This document shows positions 2,761 to 64,000 of a stretch of 64,000 nt of DNA, piece by piece. The notes beneath the pieces are model-generated. The model worked only from the letters and a program-made list of their open reading frames with translations. It searched no databases and was not told the DNA's origin. The translations under genes and the position numbers were made by a program. The DNA lies in NCBI GenBank assembly GCA_965219385.1, contig CBDCNM010000001.1, positions 174,631-238,630 on the forward strand. Reading direction: 5' to 3'. How positions within the stretch are numbered: the stretch's first letter is position 1; every line of letters starts with the position of its first letter. This DNA comes from Candidatus Latescibacterota bacterium (GTDB lineage Bacteria; Latescibacterota; UBA2968; UBA8231).

Positions 2761-3942
2761 GGCTTTGTTGCATAAAAACCGGCCGGGTATGTCGTTGCCA
2801 GCCCTGTGTGGTTTAAGCCCCTTTGTCCACCGGATAGGATTCCGGTTTACCCAGATGCAGCAGCCGGTTGAGCAGCGCACAGCCCAACCGAGCTTCACGC
2901 TGTTGGTTGGCCAGACTCCGAGCCCGCAAGGGGCCGCCCATGATCCGCTTGTAGCGAAACAGCTGCGTTTGGGCCAATGAGCGGCGAGGATAGCCACTGG
3001 CCTTTTCCAGGCTCGACGGCCCTGTTGGCGAATGGCTCGAAGGGTCTCATCGCGGGCCAACGGCGCGGCCTGGGGGTTGCTATGTTGCTCGATCTTGGCG
3101 TCCTTGCGGGGCGCAATAATGGGCCGAATGGGCGGCCCTCGCGCCGGGTCGGCCCACGCGTCGAAGACCTTGCGCTTGTCATAGGCTCCATCGCCGCGAA
3201 GGCGCCTCAATGGGTGCCTCGACTTGCTCCAGCAACGGCTCGACCTGCCCGGCATCATCCTGGTTAGGGGTCGTCAAGGTCTGTGCCACGATGGTGCCGG
3301 TGGCCGCATCCACGCCCAGATGCAGCTTGCGCCAGGTGCGCCGTTGGGTCCCCCCGTGCTGGCGCACCTTCCACTCGCCTTCGCCCTACACCTTCAGCCC
3401 GGTCGAATCGACTACCAAGTGGATCGGCTCGCGCCCTCGTGGTTGGGGCAGCTCCACCGCCCAGCCGGCCGCCCAGACCGGGTAGTGTGATCGGGCACGG
3501 GCAGGTCCAAGCCCATCCGTGCCAAGACCGAGACGAGCAACCCGCCGGCCGGCCGCAGCGGCAGATGATAGACCCGCCCCAGGGTCAACGCCGTGTGGAT
3601 GGCTACATCCGAAAAGGTGTATGGCGCCCCCCGCTGGGGTGGGCCTTGGTAATACCACGCCTGGGCTAGCGGGGGAGTAACCTACACCGTCAGACGGCCG
3701 CGCTGCTGGAGCCCGGCCTCGTAGGCTGGCCCATTACGCACCCGGTACACCACCTTCGAGCGGCGAGCAGGACGGCGACGGGCCTTGACCGAGCGGGGGG
3801 AAGACGATACTTTGGACCTGACAGGCTTCTTGGCGGAAGGGGCATTGATTTTCTTGGGAAAAAGTCATGGCCAATCTAACAAGGAGCCTGTCTTCATTCA
3901 AGGCGGTACGGAAGAAGGACCACCGATTCATGCACCAACGCC
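2761..3942 (-). mobile_element. IS5-family, IS903-group element with frameshifted transposase
   Basis: Ends GGCTTTGTTGCATAAA and (rc) GGCGTTGGTGCATGAAT. Fragments IHLVVDSTGLKV, RRTWRKLHLGVD and GDGAYD lie in different frames. No target duplication seen. Confidence 0.85.
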
Positions 3943-3998
3943 CGTCATTGCTGAAAACAGTAGGCGCCTCCTCCCCTCCCCGCTATTCGGCCATTTGC

Positions 3999-4023
3999 AA
4001 TATACGCATAATATGCATATATT
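3999..4023. promoter_or_regulatory. Inverted-repeat operator upstream of the brnTA-like TA pair
   Basis: AATATACGCATA-A-TATGCATATATT: 12-bp arms with one mismatch, 6 bp before the toxin ATG. Confidence 0.6.
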
Positions 4024-4029
4024 TTGACT

Positions 4030-4300
4030 ATGGACATCGAATGGGACCCATAAAGCCAAAAGTAACTTTGCCAAGCACGGCGTATCATTCTCAGACACTG
4101 AATCGGTACTCTTTGATCCTTGTGCTTTGACGGTTGCAGATGATCGGGAGGTAGCCGAAGACCGGCATGTTACTATTGGTTTGGATGCTTTGGGGAGGAT
4201 CCTCGTGGTAGTATACGTAGTTTACGAAGAAACCATAAGGATAATTTCGGCGAGACAAGCGACTCGGGGAGAAAAGAAGACTTATGAAACAGGAATATGA
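4030..4300 (+). pseudogene. brnT: BrnT-family ribonuclease toxin, frameshifted after codon 7
   Basis: MDIEWDP* then in a shifted frame KAKSNFAKHGVSF...EDRHVTIG...IRIISARQATRGEKKTYE; not in the ORF track. Confidence 0.85.
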
Positions 4301-4535
4301 TTTCAGCCGTGGGAGACGAGGGGTGGTAGTTCCGCAAAAAGGAAAAACGCGAATTACCATGTATGTAGATAACGACGTACTGGATGCCTTTCGTTCATTT
4401 TCAGAAAAGGTGGGTACAGGTTATCAAACCATGATCAACGAGGCATTGAAAGATTACCTTGGAAAGAAGAAGCCTCCTGTTGACGAGAATACCCTGCGTC
4501 GAGTTTTGCGAGAGGAATTGCACGCAGCGAGCTGA
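4284..4535 (+). CDS. brnA: BrnA-family antitoxin
   Basis: MKQEYDFSRGRRG...KTRITMYVDNDVLDAFR...GYQTMINEAL; overlaps the toxin 3' end. Confidence 0.9.
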   Translation: MKQEYDFSRGRRGVVVPQKGKTRITMYVDNDVLDAFRSFSEKVGTGYQTMINEALKDYLGKKKPPVDENTLRRVLREELHAAS

Positions 4536-4606
4536 TTATTCAATTGATAGATTTGTGTGCTATCGTCGAAATTTTCAGAGACGTACTTAAACACGCCCGC
4601 AACGAC

Positions 4607-4694
4607 GTATAACAACACGGTTTGCACTACGGTGCTGTTGCGCCTTGGCCTTCGGCAATCCCTTCGGGGTTCGCAAACCGGCAGGACGTTAAAG
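4607..4694 (+). other. attC site 1 (integron cassette recombination site)
   Basis: R'' GTATAAC ... R' GTTAAAG; inner arms CGGTTTGC/GCAAACCG; 88 bp, intergenic. Confidence 0.8.
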
Positions 4695-4749
4695 TAAAGG
4701 AAATGGGAAAGAAGTCACATGGACTACAGCTATACCTGCGAATATTAAA

Positions 4750-6517
4750 ATGTCAAGTGAACTTATTAGTAAAAAGGCCCGAACCGAATTACGAGAATAC
4801 TTCGTTGGGACGACCTTACGAGAGATCGAAACGGAATTTGACACAGCAGATGTCCCGTTCGATGAAAATTATGAACCATCAACGAGTGGGCAGCGCAGAT
4901 CTCTTGTCGAGCAATATTATCATGCGGTAGATTGGTCAAAATGGAGCGACGTTAGAAAAGTACTCACAGTCTATGAAAATGTCCTTGCAGAATTAGAAGT
5001 AAATGCTGAGAATGGGGATGACTGGGCCGAAAATTCGTTTAAATCGCTTCGTAAATGGATTGAACGTGATGGGTATAAATATGATAAGTGAAAGGCTTAT
5101 TTCGCCCGGTAAACACTATGGACTTGAGGAAATAGCAGACACTGCTGCAAATTTCGATTTGCCTGAGCTTCATAGACAAATCGAGAGAATTAAAAATTCT
5201 GTTGAAGATGATCCTGGTTTAGCCATTGGTACAGCAAAAGAGCTTGTTGAAACTACATGTAAGACAATTCTTGAGCAACGATCAATTGCCATTGGGAATG
5301 ACCCTGACATTGGAAGACTAATTAAGGAAACAAGAAAGGTCTTGGGGCTAGTACCAGACTCTATCCCCAGTTCAGCGAAAGGAGCAGAATCAATTCGTCG
5401 TCTCCTCAGTAATCTTGGAAATGTAGTGCAGGGTCTTTCGGAATTACGAAACTTATATGGCACTGGGCACGGTAAGCATGGTGCAACAAGAGGCTTAAGT
5501 CCACGTCATGCAAGGTTAGCCATTGGCTCGGCAGCAACTCTTAGAAGCCGTCTGAAAACCCTCTGATGTAGTCGCATTTGAACGGGCGTACTCATCGAGC
5601 CATATTCAGGTTTCACCACAAACTCTGAACAGAAAGGCTTGTATGATGAGTACACCGCGTATGCAATATGCCACCGATCTAACCGATGCACAATGGCAGC
5701 GGATCGAACCGTTGCTGCCCGCGCCGCGCTGGCGGCTTCACGGTCCGGGTCGGCCGCCGCGGGATCGACGCCAGCTTGTCAACGGCCTTTTGTATTTGAA
5801 CAAGACGGGGTGTCCTTGGGCGTTGTTGCCTGCTTGTTTTGGGCCGTGGAAAACGGTGTATGATTACTTTCGTCGCTGGAGCCTGCAAGGGGTCTGGCCG
5901 CTGGTGTTGGATCGGCTGACTAAGAGGGAGCGCCGCCAGAGCGGCCGGGCTGCGATGCCGTCGGCTGGCGTAGTCGATAGTCAGACGATTAAGACCGCAA
6001 CGCATGGTAAAACAACCGGTTATGACGCCGGCAAAAAGATCAAAGGCCGCAAACGGCATCTGTTGGTGGACCCGTCGGGTTTGCTTCGACAGGTGGTGGT
6101 CACCGCCGCCGATGTCGAGGATCGAGAGGGTTTGAAGCAGGTGTTGACCCGCTTGAAGGCCGCCGGCGTGGCTCGGTTACGCAAGCTGTGGGTTGATGGC
6201 GGCTACCAAGGCGAGGCCATCCGAACGTGGGTGGCCAACCAAAAAAAGACGCACAAAATAGACTTGGAAGTCGTCGCCAAACAAGGCTCCGGATTTACCG
6301 TAGTTAAACGCCGGTGGGTCGTCGAGCGCACGTTTGCGTGGTTGATGAATTTTCGCCGACATGCCCGAGATTATGAGGTCTTGACCCGCCATAGTGAAGC
6401 CTTGATCCAGATTGCCATGATCCACTTGCTACTTAAACGAATCAAATGAAAATTAGAGTTTTCAGACGGCTTCTTACAACCTTCCTCTTTGAAACACACG
6501 TAGAAAGAAGTGTTTAA
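4750..6517 (+). pseudogene. Abortive-infection protein (N-terminal helical domain plus Abi_C domain); frameshift at ~5087 and IS insertion at 5543
   Basis: AIGTAKELVETTCKTIL and LSELRNLYGTGHGK (HEPN-like R-x-H Abi_C motif). Removing the IS and one TTA restores ...SAATLTTFLFETHVERSV* (stop 6515-6517); 277 aa reconstructed. Confidence 0.85.
5544..6473 (+). mobile_element. IS5-family (IS1031-like) element; intact transposase 5643-6449
   Basis: Perfect 16-bp IR GAAGCCGTCTGAAAAC, TTA target duplication, motifs VDSQT, DGGYQG and RWVVERTFAW. Confidence 0.95.
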
Positions 6518-7421
6518 AGAGAATAAAAACTGATGTAATATTGCGTTATTTCCCTACAACATAAGCTTCAATATTTCGATTAATTATGCTTACGGAACGC
6601 AGAAATGAGTAAGATCGCCTTGTGTATTGGCAACGCCAATTACCCTGAGAGTTCGCTGAAAAATCCCTGCAATGATGCGAATGATGTTGCTGCCAGTCTT
6701 GAATCGTTAGGCTTCGCCGTCTGTAAACTGACCGATGCCTCAACGGTCGAAATGGAGGACGCGCTTAGAACATTTTCTGGTGACTTAGCTACAGCACATG
6801 TAGGGCTTTTCTTTTTTGCTGGCCACGGTATGCAGATCGAGGGCACGAACTTCCTCACAGCAGTTAATTCTAATTTTGAATCGAAGCTTGATGCTAAGCA
6901 TTCGTCACTTTCTCTTGACAAAGTACTTGATGTATTTGAACAGGGTAGTAATGCGACTAGTATCGTCCTCTTGGATGCTTGCCGAAACAACCCCTATGAA
7001 CGTCGCTGGCGTGGCACCGAGACACTTGGATTGGCCTCTATATACGCCCCAAAAGGAACGATAATCGCGTATGCTACATCACCTGGGCAGACAGCCTCAG
7101 ATGGTAGTGGACGAAACGGTGCATTCACCGCCGCTTTACTCCAGCATATCAGTACCCAGAACGTAAGCATTGAAGATTTGTTCAAACGAGTGCGCAACAC
7201 TCTCAGTGCCAGTACACTTGCCAAGCAGACAAGTTGGGAGCACACATCTCTCATGGGTGATTTCTTCTTCAACCCAATATCTCTTACAGGCGAGATGAAC
7301 ACTGCTTATTCAAGAGAAGCTATGGCAGATGGAGAGTTTACCTGCCATGGTGGCCGTCCTCTAAGCACTGTTCTTGAAGGTCTTCGCAGCCATAATTGGC
7401 ACCGACAGAATACAGCGATTA

Positions 7422-8375
7422 GGCTGTGTACGATAAAAGGTTTTTGAGCCAAATACGGATGAAAGCGAGTATGATCATCGCCTGATACCTGTCGGCGTGT
7501 TTTTCATATCGGGTGGCAATGCGTCGGTTTTCTTTGAGCCGTCCGATGAGTCGTTCCACCACATTGCGCTGCCGATATAAGTCCTTGTCGAATCCGATGG
7601 CCTCAGGGGGATACTCCCCCTGCCGATTTTTTCGATGGGCGATCACGGGCTTGGTTCGCCGTTGGCGCAGTTTCTCGCGGATGGATTGACTATCATAGGC
7701 TTTATCACCGGCCAGGGCTTCAAACCGGGTGCGCTTGGGACCGGGTTTGCCTCCAATGGCCACTGAATCGAGCAAGGCGTCTACCTGGGTGGATTCATGC
7801 TGCTGACCCGGGGTTATGGTAACCGTGATGGGCTTGCCCGCCCCTTCACAAAGGACATGAATTTTGGTGGTATAGCCGCCACGGCTTTGCCCAAGCCCCT
7901 GTTTTTGAAGGCTTTCTTCACGGCTTATGGAAACACCATTTATGTTTTTTTTGCCCCGGCGGCTGCTTTATGCGCCCGAACGATGCTCCCATCGAGGGCG
8001 GCGAACGTAAAATCGATCTGATCCATATGGCGCGCTTGGGCTTCTAACGCATCCAGGATCTGTTGCCATAAGCCTTTTTGTTCCCAACGACGAAACCGGT
8101 CGGCCCCCGTGCTCCAAGGGCCGTACCGGGGGGGCAAATCGCGCCAAGGCGCGCCGGTGCGTAAAATCCAGAAAATGCCGTTGAGCACTTGGCGATGACT
8201 CCGATAAGGGCAGCCCGGTTTGCCCGACCGTTCGGCAGGTAACAACGGCTTTAGCAGGGCAAATTCTTCATCGGTTAAGTCGTAGCGGGCCATCGGTATC
8301 CCCTCCTTCGATTCAATGGTTGAAAGAGAGTATACCACGTCCCAATACTATTTCAAGCAATTATCGTACACAGCC
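7422..8375 (-). mobile_element. IS5-family (IS427 group) element, orfA/orfB joined by a -1 frameshift
   Basis: IR GGCTGTGTACGATAA, TA duplication; A8 run at the orfA end leads into GQSRGGYTTKIH...GDKAYDS...RNVVER. Confidence 0.93.
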
Positions 8376-8672
8376 TAGTAAACTTACACAGATTAACCTG
8401 CCAGACTGTTCTTCGGACGAGTTATTCGTTCTTGGTCGCAACCTATACCAGACGGCATGTGGAGGCTCATTTGGAAGCTCAAATCTCGCTGATAGATACT
8501 TCAATTCTCTCCGTCAGAACCTGAATTCTTGCGATGATGAAACTACTTTTCACATGGTTAATGGTATGCTTTACGAGATTTACTTTGGTTCCGATGGGAA
8601 GTTTAGAAATCGCATGAAGGGCGATAGACTTGAGGATGTATATTACATAGAAGAAGATCCTCAGTTCGAGCC

Positions 8673-10301
8673 GGGTGCATTAGCCGATTGTGTAAACCCG
8701 GTGATCACTGGGTCAGCCGGGCCTGAGCGTGTCTCTCGAAGACGGCCTCGAGGGTGCCGTTGTATTTGGCGCATCGTAATGCCAGCATGTGGTTGCTGGA
8801 GGCCTGGTACCACCAGGCGCCAGAGCGCTTGAGGCGCACTTGAGCAACGAATCGATGGGCCGACTCGATGGCTCCGGAGCCAATGGGGTAACCGCCTTTG
8901 CGATGACTTCCATACTCCACTCGAGACAGATGCTCGCTCAGATAGCTTACGGCGGCAGCGATCGCCTTGGCGGCTTCCTCGCAGATCGGCTGCATGCGCT
9001 GCAGGCCCCAGAGCACGCCGGCGGCTTCGTTGCCGTTGAGGCGGGCCATCGTAGCCTCCAGCCACTCACAGGCCCGCGACGGGTCGGCGCCGTACTGCGT
9101 TTGGGCTACTTCATGCAAGTACTGGCTGAGGTGGTAGAAGTCGAGCACTTGACGCGCCGAGGGGAACAGCTCTTGGACCCACTTCCAGATCCACGACGCG
9201 CCATCGCCGATGACGCACAGCCGTACTTGATCTTCGGGGATACGACCCTCGTCCTTGAGGCGCTTGAGGGCGTGTCCCAATTCCTCCTCGGTGGCCACCT
9301 GGTGCCAGGAGATGAGGTGGACGATGCGCTCCTCGTCCACCAGAAACAGGCGGAAGCCCTTGGCTTCGCGGTACTCCCCCTTCCAACGAGCCCGATGCGC
9401 CCGCTGGCGGCGCCGTCCGGGTCGCGCCCCACGGGCCGTGTCCGGACGCGTGGGGATCATGCTCCCAACCAGGGCCAGCACCGCGATCGGACGCCAGCTA
9501 CGACCGGCCTGCAGTGTTTCGATGCGTTCCTGGATTACCTCTCGGCTCGGAGCCACGTCGAGCACATCCAGAGAGCCGCCGAGCTGGTCGACGACCTCGT
9601 GGATAGCACAGTCGCTCAGGCGCGCATCGGTGAGGCGCGCCAGGAACGCCTCCGCGTCCCCATAGGGCATCTCCATCGCCAACCGAGTGGCCTCCTCCTG
9701 CACATCGGACTGCTTGCGCTCGGGGGTCAGACCCAGCGCCGCGTCCAAGGGGGCATAGCCGACACGGCAACGACGGCAGTAGAAATACGGGCGCTGCAGG
9801 CGACTGGTGCCCATCAGCGTCTCCACCGTACGGCCGCGAAGCGCCTTCTCCCGATGCACACAACGACCACAGCCCGGACACGGAGCGACGTCTTGCGTCA
9901 GCAGATCAGCGTAGTGTTGCTGCACGTACGCTTCGACCACCGCACCCATCAGCGCACCGCGGTGCGCGCCCAGGCACGCCGTCAGATCCCGAAGGCGCGG
10001 TCGCTCGTCCTCGAGCTCGGCCAGATCCGTGTCGACAGCATCCAGGATTCTATCCACCATCGCATGAACCTCGGCGCGCGCAGTCGTCGCCTGCGCCCTC
10101 TCTTGAAGCGCCTTCCAGGCCACGAGTGCACCCATCGAAGGTCTCCTTCCTCATGCCAGGGGAATACCCGCGGGGAAGGCAATCGACTCGTCGTAGCCAC
10201 AACGGCTCGTCCTAGTGCCCAGGGAAGGCACTTCCTTTCCTATTATAGTCAGGGTGGCCAAAATCCGCTCGAAAAAACCTACGCAATCAGCTAATGCACC
10301 C
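8673..10301 (-). mobile_element. ISKra4-family element; transposase 8705-10135
   Basis: IR GGGTGCATTAGC(C/T)GATTG, 9-bp duplication GTTCGAGCC, motifs GDGASWIW, LDFYHL and IGSGAIES. Confidence 0.92.
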
Positions 10302-10699
10302 GTTCGAGCCTTCATTCCGCTTCTGTAGAGAAGCTCTCCAACCGTACCAGGAGCTGATGTTTTATGTGCTACTTGACTTACGAGATGTGGTCTTTGATGC
10401 AGTTATCGAACCTGAGTCTGAGAGATGTCATCGATTAAAAACACTTCTCTTTGGTGGTGACAATGTATTATTTGCTAGGGATGGAGAAACACTGCCGGCA
10501 GACACACACGAATGGGCTCAATCATCCTTTAAAGTAGGTCAGTTTGAGGACAAACTTACGGCAAATCTTGCCATTCCTAGACGACGCCTTCGTGTTACTT
10601 ACTCTAACGACATAGAAGTTGAAGACACTATCATAGCACTCTATGACTTCGTGATTATTCGACCGGGAGCATCACTGGAGTAAATAAACATCCCACATC

Positions 10700-10792
10700 C
10701 TTTAACATTCCTTTGACGCAGCGCCGCCATACGACGGCTTGGCCTTCGGCACCCCAGCTACGCTAGGGTCGTCAACGGAAGAACTGTTATGC
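10700..10792 (+). other. attC site 2
   Basis: R'' CTTTAAC (complement of the previous R' GTTAAAG) ... R' GTTATGC; arms TTCCTTTGACG/CGTCAACGGAA; shares CTTGGCCTTCGGCA with attC1. Confidence 0.85.
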
Positions 10793-10837
10793 GACATGCC
10801 GGGAAGATGACTGGGCAAATATGATTAGGAAATCGTC

Positions 10838-11449
10838 ATGAAAATGTACGACTCTGTCACCCTTATTTGTGGCCAATACTCTGAGAGCCCTGCGGCTGTT
10901 CGAGCGGTTTTAGAACTATTCCGTCTTCGAGTTCAGATGCACGTCGGGGTATGGCGGCAGCACTTGATTGAAATCTTCGCTGGGAAAGTTCCATGCAGCG
11001 AATACATCATCATCATGACCTTCGGAGAAGGGGACACGGAGAATGAAGATCTTGACCCTGAGGATATGAAAATGGGCTTCCCGTGTGTAGAATTGCAGGA
11101 CGATTGGCAAGCCACAACTTTTCACCTCACTCCGACGAATATACCACAAGTTGTCGTTTGGCCAGACAAGAAGATTTTATTCTGCGGGTGTGGAAGTGGC
11201 AGGAGGCTATTTGCTGAGGCGTTTCTTCAAGCTGGCTGCGAATCATACATTGGATGCGTAGGCGAAGTTGATTCAGACGCAGGCATCATGTTTGTTCTGT
11301 CTTATTTCTACCATCTGCTATCCGAAGATCGGGGAGATTCACCAGTTTCAGATAGGCAAGCTTTTCAACGCGCTGCAGCCTTTGACGCACAGAGCGCGAG
11401 TGGAACGTCTAGATTCAGATATTTTACGAGGGACGATTTAACCGGTTGA
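10838..11449 (+). CDS. Hypothetical cassette protein, possible CHAT/caspase-like fold
   Basis: Single ORF filling the attC2-attC3 interval; ILFCGCGSG...FAEAFLQAGCESYIG. Confidence 0.65.
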   Translation: MKMYDSVTLICGQYSESPAAVRAVLELFRLRVQMHVGVWRQHLIEIFAGKVPCSEYIIIMTFGEGDTENEDLDPEDMKMGFPCVELQDDWQATTFHLTPTNIPQVVVWPDKKILFCGCGSGRRLFAEAFLQAGCESYIGCVGEVDSDAGIMFVLSYFYHLLSEDRGDSPVSDRQAFQRAAAFDAQSASGTSRFRYFTRDDLTG

Positions 11450-11472
11450 CAGGAACGGGAGTTAGGCACGCC

Positions 11473-11527
11473 GCATAACACATCGGTTTTCGCTTCGCCG
11501 CCTGCGGCAACCTGGCTACCGTTGGGC
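11473..11527 (+). other. attC site 3 (short)
   Basis: R'' GCATAAC (complement of the previous R' GTTATGC) ... GTTGGGC; 55 bp with weaker inner arms. Confidence 0.6.
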
Positions 11528-11569
11528 CGCCTCATTAGCCGAAAGCGAAAAAGGAGAGAATTCAACTTC

Positions 11570-12337
11570 GTGGTCGAGAAATACGTTGACTCGCACGGGA
11601 CCCGAATATGGACTGCCGCGCAAGGCTCTGGAATCCCCCTTCTTCTGTGCAACGGTGGACCTGGATGTTGTGATTACTTGCGGCCTGTAGCTGAGATGGT
11701 AGAAGATCTTGCCCACGTCATCCGTTTCGAGCAACGTGGATGTGGGCGCTCGGATCTGTCAGGACCATATGATGTGGAAACGTGCGTCGCAGATATGGAG
11801 GCGATCCGTGAGTCGTATGGATTGAGTCGTTGGGTGGTTGGGGGTCATTCCTGGGGCGCAGAGCTGGCGATTACATACTCGATTGTGCATGCGAATAGAG
11901 TGATGGGCATCATCGGTATTTCAGGCGGTGTCATTCACAAAGACCGCGCCTGGAGCAGTCAGTACACCCGTCTAAAGGACCAGGAGATCGTTCCAGACTT
12001 CGTGTATCCGCCAAATTTGGAAGTAAACAAACAGGTCAACGAGTCCTGGAGAGGGTTTGTTCGGAAGCCGGATCTTCTCAGAGTGATCGCCGACACCCCC
12101 ATTCCCACCATTTTAATCTACGGCGAGCGGGATATTCGACCGTCTTGGCCGATTCAGCAATTGGCCACTTTGTTGCCAAGGGGGAAGTTCGTTTCCGTAC
12201 AAGGGGCAGAACACGCGATATGGCTGCTTCGGCCTAACAAGTTGGCGGATCACATAAGAAATTTTATTGCCAGAATCGCTGAAGAAACGGCGCACCTGCG
12301 ATCGCGTGAAGATCCGTCGCCTTCGACTAACTTGTAG
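11570..12337 (+). CDS. Alpha/beta hydrolase (proline iminopeptidase-like)
   Basis: NGGPG, EQRGCGRS, GHSWG nucleophile elbow. Confidence 0.85.
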   Translation: MVEKYVDSHGTRIWTAAQGSGIPLLLCNGGPGCCDYLRPVAEMVEDLAHVIRFEQRGCGRSDLSGPYDVETCVADMEAIRESYGLSRWVVGGHSWGAELAITYSIVHANRVMGIIGISGGVIHKDRAWSSQYTRLKDQEIVPDFVYPPNLEVNKQVNESWRGFVRKPDLLRVIADTPIPTILIYGERDIRPSWPIQQLATLLPRGKFVSVQGAEHAIWLLRPNKLADHIRNFIARIAEETAHLRSREDPSPSTNL

Positions 12338-12348
12338 AGGCGAGGACT

Positions 12349-13047
12349 TTGCGAATTTCAGCGATTTCTTTTGATGGTGACATGACCTTGTGGGACTTTC
12401 AGAAGGTCATGCGGCATTCGCTCAAGCGCACATTAGCGGAACTACGCAGGCAAGTTCCGACACAGCGCGCTCTAGACCTTACGGTGGAGGAGATGATTGC
12501 GATTCGTAATCGGCTTGCCGAGGAGGTGAAGGGCAAGGTCTGGAACCTTGAGGAAATCAGAAGGCTTGCATTTGAGAGGACGCTGGAACATGTTGGATGT
12601 CTGGACAGTAGCCTGGCTGTCCGTCTGAATGAGATATATCTGAAGCATCGTTTCGAAGATATCGAGTTGTACCAAGATGTCGTGCCTGCTCTTGATACTT
12701 TAGCGCCTCATTTCAAGGTCGGACTTCTGTCAAACGGGAATAGTTACCCCGAACGCTGTGGGCTTGAGGGTCGTTTTGACTTTGTTGTCCTTGCCCAGGA
12801 TGTGCGTGTTGAGAAGCCCGATCGACGAATCTTTCAGATCACCGCACGGAGGGCGTACTGCCAACTGGAGCAGCTACTGCACGTAGGAGATTCCCTGGAA
12901 GACGATGTTGCGGGTGCGCGTGCGGCCGGAGCGCACGCGGTCTGGCTGAATCGCGAAGGTCTGACGAACGACACTGAGATCAAAGCTGACCACGAAGCTA
13001 GCTCATTGACTGACCTACCTGCAATATTAGGGGTAGGTCGAGGCTGA
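12349..13047 (+). CDS. HAD-family hydrolase
   Basis: FDGDMTL, LSNG, EKPD, HVGDSLEDDVAGA. Confidence 0.88.
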   Translation: MRISAISFDGDMTLWDFQKVMRHSLKRTLAELRRQVPTQRALDLTVEEMIAIRNRLAEEVKGKVWNLEEIRRLAFERTLEHVGCLDSSLAVRLNEIYLKHRFEDIELYQDVVPALDTLAPHFKVGLLSNGNSYPERCGLEGRFDFVVLAQDVRVEKPDRRIFQITARRAYCQLEQLLHVGDSLEDDVAGARAAGAHAVWLNREGLTNDTEIKADHEASSLTDLPAILGVGRG

Positions 13048-63565: not shown

Positions 63566-63938
63566 GGAGTGGGTCGGGCGATCGCGCTGTCCGGCCACAG
63601 GGCCGGAGGTGAGGAAAGTCCGAGCTCCCCAGGACAGGACGCTGGGTAACACCCAGGAGGGGCGACCCTACAGAAAGTGCCACAGAAAACACACCGCCCG
63701 GAATCCTCTGGTCTTCGGGTAAGGGTGAAAAGGTGAGGTAAGAGCTCACCGCGTTTCCGGCGACGGAAACGGCAGGGCAAACCTCGTCCGGAGCAAGGCC
63801 AAATAGGGGAGGAGAGGTGGTCCGCCTCGCTTACAACTCCCGGGTAGGCCGCAAAGAGGCTGTGGGCAACCACCGTCCAAGATGAATGATCGCCCCGCGC
63901 CCCGCGCGCGGACAGGACTCGGCTTATAGACCCACTCC
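63566..63938 (+). ncRNA. rnpB: RNase P RNA (class A)
   Basis: GAGGAAAGTCC, GAAAGTGCCACAGAAA, GAGCAAGGCCAAATAG and ACAGGACTCGGCTTA; terminal P1 pairing GGAGTGGGTC/GACCCACTCC. Confidence 0.97.
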
Positions 63939-64000
63939 CACTTCTTTCGTTCATTGAGTCCGTTTCCCCGGGCCTGGCCACAGGACCGGACAGCGGGAAT

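Follow-up and report, generated by a model that had tools for sequence, protein, structure and literature searches.

A two-gene integron-type cassette from a Latescibacterota bacterium encodes a caspase with an uncharacterised C-terminal domain shared by several putative immune effectors

A stretch of 64,000 nt from the genome of a Candidatus Latescibacterota bacterium (GCA_965219385.1, contig CBDCNM010000001.1, positions 174,631 to 238,630; hereafter the window, in which all positions are given) holds the scattered pieces of two genes, one for an Abi_C-like protein and one for a caspase of 494 aa, interrupted by three insertion sequence (IS) elements. An earlier note, made from the sequence alone, had read them as a sensor-protease and HEPN-type effector pair mobilised as one cassette. 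This raises the question of whether the two genes work as a pair or only travel together, and of what the caspase's C-terminal domain does. We favour the reading that the 494-aa protein acts in abortive infection and combines effector and swappable sensor in one gene, packaged together with a probably independent Abi_C gene; the sequence comparisons below make this reasonably probable. New here is the uncharacterised domain, which appears to be common to several immune effectors and the role of which is probably sensory.

The IS elements, their inverted ends and target duplications were located in the sequence at the positions given in the earlier note. The gene pieces were compared with two proteins, the database protein P0001 (494 aa) for the caspase and P0077 (277 aa) for the Abi_C gene. 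The features of the locus are as follows:

4607..4694, plus strand: attC-like site that terminates the BrnT/BrnA cassette upstream; one of 49 genome-wide repeats.
4750..5091, plus strand: 5′ piece of the Abi_C/AbiJ-like gene, 113 aa; 94% to P0077 residues 1-112.
5093..5543, plus strand: middle piece of the Abi_C gene with the HEPN-type R-x6-H motif; Pfam Abi_C 84 bits, cut-off 24.
5544..6473, plus strand: IS5-family element with TTA duplication; NF033580 242.8 bits, cut-off 110.
6477..6517, plus strand: final codons of the Abi_C gene, including its stop; match to P0077 residues 264-277.
6518..6604, no strand: 87-nt AT-rich intergenic stretch without attC; ~2 nt in a relative of the P0003 type.
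6605..7421, plus strand: caspase piece 1, MALT1-like C14 domain (H74, C126) and start of the C-terminal domain; Peptidase_C14 E 2.8e-37.
7422..8375, minus strand: IS5-type element with split transposase and TA duplication; DUF4096 and DDE_Tnp_1.
8378..8672, plus strand: caspase piece 2, coding for the helical core (LGRNLYQ, NGMLYEIYF) of the C-terminal domain; identical to P0001 274-371.
8673..10301, minus strand: ISKra4-family element with the 9-bp duplication GTTCGAGCC; NF033572 228.5 bits, cut-off 205.
10311..10683, plus strand: caspase piece 3 with the stop codon, coding for the beta-rich last part of the C-terminal domain; identical to P0001 372-494.
10700..10792, plus strand: the cassette's own attC (CTTTAAC ... 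GTTATGC); attC-family match E 2e-10.

P0001 matches the three caspase pieces with zero mismatches, piece 1 being identical to its residues 1-272. The two halves of the Abi gene each align with P0077 at 94%, and at 5086-5092 the sequence has 7 nt where the alignment needs 6; the gene thus carries one extra base, and the resulting +1 frameshift at ~5086-5092 ends the 5′ piece. Because P0001 and P0077 match the pieces directly, the reconstruction does not depend on in-silico joining. We also placed contigs from four public runs (X1, X2, X4 and X12, from four studies) on positions 3900-12400. A 2,836-nt contig from run X12 is a natural, IS-free version of the cassette, ~95% identical and with different flanks. 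It aligns to 4695-5538, 6472-7419, 8376-8663 and 10302-10692, i.e., to the entire cassette without the IS elements. The earlier note had proposed just these products, a 494-aa caspase rejoined from three pieces and a 277-aa Abi_C protein after removal of one base, and P0001, P0077 and the X12 contig bear them out; automated annotation of the genome gives fragments only, as it had also stated.

The caspase domain exceeds the PF00656 cut-off widely (127 bits, cut-off 21.4), and its best Foldseek matches are MALT1. H74 and C126 are invariant in 28 homologs and 54 of the 58 caspase representatives of full length retain the His-Cys dyad, in agreement with the intact catalytic dyad noted earlier. 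No full-length homolog of the caspase was found in 60 relatives. According to the secondary structure of the AlphaFold model (mean pLDDT 84.6 for the full-length protein and 76.2 for the C-terminal domain), the C-terminal domain, approximately residues 228-494, consists of a core of helices and a tail rich in beta structure. It has no match in Pfam, NCBIfam, PADLOC or PDB sequences, and Foldseek searches against PDB and BFVD returned nothing at E≤0.001. Matches in the ESM Atlas were to unnamed clusters only, at 0.79. HEAT-like helical proteins were considered as a fold match and rejected as generic (best VIA-align Z 6.6). These sequence and fold searches therefore leave the domain without a nameable family, which is what the earlier note had reported.

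The domain is nevertheless widespread, as a profile built on it matched 827 clusters at 50% identity. We counted architectures in the best 150 of these clusters. The N-terminus was a caspase in 78, another domain in 39, and in the remaining 33 we found fragments or the domain alone. The 39 non-caspase N-termini comprised 32 PIN_8, three TIR_2 and four without a Pfam family, one of which looks HNH-like by eye. Plasmids carry the same three main domain forms. A fusion of the domain to a PD-T7-3-like HEPN protein is present at loci L200-L202 and L212-L214. On a quick tree of the domain, five effector changes are needed and three are the minimum, with at least two forced for PIN. Ten residues (D242, Q268, G292, R293, N294, Q297, G335, E339, R349 and K353), most of them polar, are conserved in 93% or more of the caspase fusions and likewise of the PIN fusions, and the near-invariant residues of the helical core are common to the caspase, PIN and TIR fusions. 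In the collection of phages searched the domain had no match, and in the source genome the search found only the pieces in the window. Among 167 other genomes of the phylum it occurred in three, always as a HEPN fusion. A whole-protein alignment search of genome contigs was swamped by unrelated caspases, with the domain present at two of 79 loci.

To describe the surroundings of the domain we used 96 loci, which collapse to 73 clusters at 90% identity. Neither a recurrent partner in the 73 clusters nor a conserved partner among the 119 nearest neighbours scanned with Pfam was found. The neighbours vary by locus and include Qat, short Argonaute-SIR2, type II and type III restriction-modification, Lamassu-like, Thoeris TIR, AbiJ and AbiC genes. 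A PADLOC match at E≤1e-10 within two genes on either side was seen at 21 of 70 domain loci and at five of 41 control loci (Fisher p=0.038), the control being 41 of 77 caspase loci without the domain, with six matches to the caspase model itself dropped. Counted by protein, 32 of 216 neighbours matched, compared with five of 134 in the control (Fisher p 0.001); this control is crude (greedy picking of open reading frames, differing source collections, short contigs, generic matches on both sides), which counts against our reading. Three of the loci may be mentioned individually. At L091:5560-6768 a TIR version of the gene lies behind a Qat operon that is complete and has the same orientation, at L107:1036-2898 a caspase version lies behind QatC fused to a DpnII/MboI-like nuclease domain, and at L142:2068-5783 a caspase gene lies between two ThsB-like TIR genes.

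On these comparisons, the domain is exchanged by bacteria between predicted toxic enzymes and has no fixed partner. Effector swapping, in combination with defence-rich surroundings that include no constant partner, is what a one-gene sensor-effector would show. The defence role suggested for the locus in the earlier note is likely, given the defence-rich neighbourhood and the fusions to defence-type effectors.

Is the Abi_C gene then part of the same system? P0077 scores 94.5 bits against PF14355 (cut-off 24), and R233 and H240 (P0077 numbering) are invariant in 50 of 50 homologs. The N-terminal half of the protein has no Pfam match. The middle piece matches the C-terminal part of PADLOC AbiJ (E 4.5e-12); this match is confined to positions 169-276 of the 281 in the profile and is not full-length. 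In an obligate two-component system, as in canu, the caspase would sense infection and cleave or bind the Abi_C protein, releasing a HEPN RNase, and a caspase-activated pro-nuclease has a precedent in the available part of PMC12799240. In close relatives the two genes are indeed linked, down to 79% caspase identity, and both are on the X12 contig. For four of the eight caspase contigs other than the window's own, members of the nearest Abi and caspase clusters lie on contigs of equal length. In the P0003-type relative (79% caspase identity) the caspase starts ~2 nt after the homologous Abi stop, an operon-like arrangement; the joint corresponding to 6517->6609 there consists of 24 letters encoding the N-terminus of P0003. 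These observations weigh against an independent caspase, as do three distant loci. With an Abi profile built from 120 homologs, L109 has an Abi_C gene directly upstream, in the same order as in the cassette, and L146 has an AbiJ-like match three genes upstream, while L170 has an AbiJ_NTD3 gene downstream of the domain gene.

Linkage within one lineage is, however, expected whatever the function, because a cassette that has no attC inside it is passed on as one piece; the Abi_C gene travels along since no attC separates it from the caspase gene. In the distant loci the linkage is rare: only one of the 54 clusters (of the 73) with at least 1 kb upstream has Abi_C directly upstream. The Abi family has 2,817 matches against 62 proteins for the caspase domain, and none of five other Abi loci has a caspase or the domain within the fetched flank. 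Furthermore, the presence of the domain on PIN, TIR, HNH-like or HEPN proteins instead of a caspase favours a self-contained sensor-effector over an Abi_C-dependent protease. The two genes of the earlier note thus stay together in the close relatives, and adjacency extends to L109, but the other distant clusters do not support a general two-gene system. We consider an obligate pair unlikely, although the tight spacing in the P0003-type relative speaks for a functional one. The simplest view of the Abi_C protein is that of a separate, common AbiJ-like HEPN RNase, as predicted from its motif and family.

For the one-gene sensor-effector, the following course of events can be proposed. On infection, the C-terminal domain would bind a phage-derived trigger and cluster. 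Clustering would dimerise the protease domains, and promiscuous cleavage of cell proteins would follow, so that the infected cell stops or dies. Dimerisation is required by MALT1-type enzymes. Trigger sensing, clustering and protection against phage are inferred, and proteolysis and abortive infection would follow from the analogy with the type IV Thoeris caspase, which likewise has an unknown C-terminal domain according to the accessible portion of the report (10.1101/2024.10.24.620036). As to the trigger, single-stranded DNA (ssDNA), as in DARNA/PD-T7-3, may be the likeliest single candidate, a suggestion we make tentatively, and a phage protein would be the alternative.

The domain could instead act as the receptor of a nucleotide second messenger that is produced elsewhere. 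Type IV Thoeris, CARF and SAVED would be the models, and for these, too, fusions to caspase, TIR, PIN and HEPN exist. The invariant polar residues of our domain are clustered, L142 is flanked by ThsB-like TIR genes, and the caspase of type IV Thoeris cited above, with its unknown C-terminal domain, offers a parallel. A ThsB-like TIR gene is, however, adjacent at one of 70 loci only, the cassette contains no TIR gene, and no match to a cyclase or CD-NTase model was found among the 216 neighbours. We regard such a receptor as slightly less likely still than the obligate pair.

The tentative suggestion of ssDNA derives from PD-T7-3, which is the same protein as DARNA. Its distal helical C-terminal domain is described, in the part of the paper accessible to us, as binding ssDNA via F368, D372, Q403, W406 and N408 (10.64898/2026.02.22.705581). 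The HEPN fusions in the three genomes of the phylum are ~495 aa long and have an N-terminal R-x4-H HEPN domain and, at the end, the helical core of our domain (hhalign probability 97.7%). At the N-terminus these proteins show a weak match to PD-T7-3. Searching 401 genomes with the PD-T7-3 profile gave five matches, three of them with the domain core (E ~1e-13 to 1e-20). Two further genome sets gave none in 317 and one in 301; this last match, together with L215, was rejected as an unrelated chance or partial match. Proteins of ~495-510 aa with a HEPN domain, homologous to DARNA/PD-T7-3 over ~300 positions and ending in the studied domain, were seen at L200, L202, L208 and L212-L214, and we regard these as candidate DARNA-like systems.

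A profile of 11 HEPN fusions aligned to residues 13-326 of PDB entry 9WXF (‘Dandelion’, 460 aa, 12 chains) with an E-value of 5.8e-14 and an envelope reaching 393. The entry appears to be DARNA itself, as its R122/H127 fit R117/H122 plus a 5-residue tag. Our domain matches the HEPN fusions with E-values of 1e-13 to 1e-25, and the core of these fusions scored 36.3 against the distal part of a PD-T7-3-like family of 446-519 aa, compared with a maximum of 17.4 in 40 shuffles. In that register W265-x3-N269 falls on an F/W-x3-N motif with the same spacing as F368-x3-D372, and an aromatic residue at +39 from W265 parallels W406 at +38 from F368. Of 162 parsed sequences, 154 have an aromatic residue at the position of W265, and 62 have another in the loop that follows.

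Several points weigh against the link to ssDNA. The direct comparison of the domain with the PD-T7-3-like family gave 22.7 against a shuffled maximum of 22.9, the single-sequence comparison was within noise, and the link is transitive, with the 9WXF alignment stopping short of the binding residues. Neither P0001 nor anything else in the source genome matched PD-T7-3, the caspase standing in the HEPN position. It is with some doubt that we suggest that the domain might be a stand-alone version of the ssDNA-reading claw of DARNA, grafted onto caspase, PIN, TIR, HNH and HEPN. If so, the protein in the window would be a DNA-activated paracaspase in one polypeptide that detects phage ssDNA where it is exposed, gathers on it and sets off cell death of the caspase type, a bacterial counterpart of DNA-sensing inflammasome logic, and the domain would represent a widespread new family of immune sensors with more than 800 clusters. 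Natural intact alleles exist, and the specific prediction is activation by ssDNA through W265/N269.

We now return to the cassette and its history. The GTTAAAG core at 4688-4694 is the 5′ recombination end, and the first core of the closing attC, CTTTAAC at 10700, is its exact complement. Without the three IS elements and one copy of each duplication, 2,571 nt at 44.1% GC remain in a genome of ~60% GC, which fits the low-GC unit of ~2.6 kb predicted earlier. An attC profile grown from the sites of the window found 49 repeats genome-wide, three of them in the window. A search of 6478-6640 for an attC between the two genes with the genome-built profile (nhmmer --max, filters off) was negative, while a control site was found at E 3.5e-9. 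A cryptic attC in the intergenic stretch was rejected on this null result and on the ~2-nt gap in the relative. The complementary cores, the attC family and the X12 match, which begins at 4695 and ends at 10692, agree on the same bounds. The unit is thus a single integron-type cassette with two genes and without an internal attC, as the earlier note had concluded.

Of the 49 repeats, 16 form an array on contig 2 (G000:C2:1,317,337-1,341,093; L001, L008), and the rest are scattered in small clusters. The array adjoins a divergently placed tyrosine recombinase of 288 aa, the best TIGR02249 score of which is 124.8 bits (cut-off 265) and which is apparently frameshifted near its C-terminus. No integrase was found near the three-site cluster of the window.

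The IS5-family element at 5544-6473 has 16 genome copies at 97% or more, itself included, the IS5-type element at 7422-8375 has 14, of which 12 are identical, and the ISKra4-family element at 8673-10301 is present in one copy. Contigs of identical sequence from X1 and X2 carry the first element and lack the second and third, so that the latter two are the latest insertions; the X4 contig has all three. The frameshift in the Abi_C gene is common to the X1, X2 and X4 contigs, without a gap, and an error of sequencing or assembly was rejected on this ground. The X1 contig (protein P0354) has an extra IS5-type insertion at position 5348 in the Abi gene, an independent inactivation. A homolog on Edwardsiella anguillarum plasmids (L210:2334-4537), where a short caspase piece is annotated beside an IS5 transposase, is apparently disrupted too. 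The cassette is real and mobile, is dead in this genome (frameshift and three IS elements) and has been struck repeatedly. More than one independent knock-out in related strains suggests that it is costly to keep.

Such losses would also be in keeping with a stress or addiction module that gathers in mobile, defence-rich DNA and is not anti-phage. The cassette was knocked out repeatedly in this lineage and its phenotype is not known, and 49 of 70 domain loci have no strong PADLOC neighbour. Every fused partner, however, is an enzyme type used as a defence effector, and the HEPN fusions are homologous to a validated defence protein over the first 300 positions. We judge this explanation improbable, to about the same degree as the second-messenger receptor, and retain the abortive-infection sensor-effector.

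Upstream, a BrnT/BrnA toxin-antitoxin pair (4040-4535) forms the cassette that ends with the attC at 4607-4694. The next (10838-11449) encodes a 203-aa reading frame with no match in Pfam, NCBIfam or PADLOC and is followed by a short attC at 11470-11527. After it come genes for an alpha/beta-hydrolase, a HAD protein and a GNAT fragment, none with a detected attC. RNase P RNA class A lies at 63566-63942.

For the majority of defence systems it is not known how they recognise phage, and to most caspases of bacteria no function has been assigned. A single domain that recurs in four or more classes of effector is what one would expect if it were an immune sensor. No description of the C-terminal domain or of the caspase and Abi_C pair was found in the literature covered, subscription papers and bioRxiv supplements lying beyond its scope. 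The domain is not described in the accessible portions of PMC13069673, PMC13243611, 10.64898/2025.12.03.692087, 10.1101/2024.10.26.620412 and PMC10952713, nor in the supplement rows of PMC9519451 that were available.

Finally, the locus can be compared with known systems, of which the published ones are taken here from the accessible parts of the respective reports. Defence cassettes in integrons are already known (PMC13434031). The present one resembles them as a low-GC cassette between attC sites, with a 16-site array next to a tyrosine recombinase at another place in the genome, and differs in having two genes, in being inactivated and in lacking an integrase near its three-site cluster. 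The upstream gene resembles the AbiJ/Abi_C (PF14355) HEPN proteins in scoring above the Abi_C cut-off and in its invariant R-x6-H motif, but it matches PADLOC AbiJ in the C-terminal part only. Type IV Thoeris (10.1101/2024.10.24.620036) has as its defining feature a short TIR protein, encoded next to the caspase, that produces the signal; such a ThsB-like TIR gene is missing from the cassette and rare at the domain loci, and the studied domain is also fused to TIR itself. By this operon criterion the cassette is not type IV Thoeris, the C-terminal domains of the two caspases not having been compared. With canu (PMC12799240) and EACC1-caspase (PMC12642450) it shares a MALT1-like caspase beside a candidate effector gene, but the MBL pro-nuclease and the EACC1 partner of these systems are absent here (NF047832 59 bits, cut-off 140). 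DARNA/PD-T7-3 (10.64898/2026.02.22.705581) is, as we propose for the present protein, the product of one gene that acts in abortive infection, with a toxic enzyme at the N-terminus and a helical sensor at the C-terminus; by way of the HEPN fusions, the core of our domain would come to lie at the ssDNA contacts of DARNA (F368-N408). Here, in contrast, the enzyme is a caspase and not HEPN, a beta-rich tail is added and the middle helical region of DARNA is absent. The 494-aa protein is thus distinct from canu and EACC1-caspase and, by its different effector, from DARNA.

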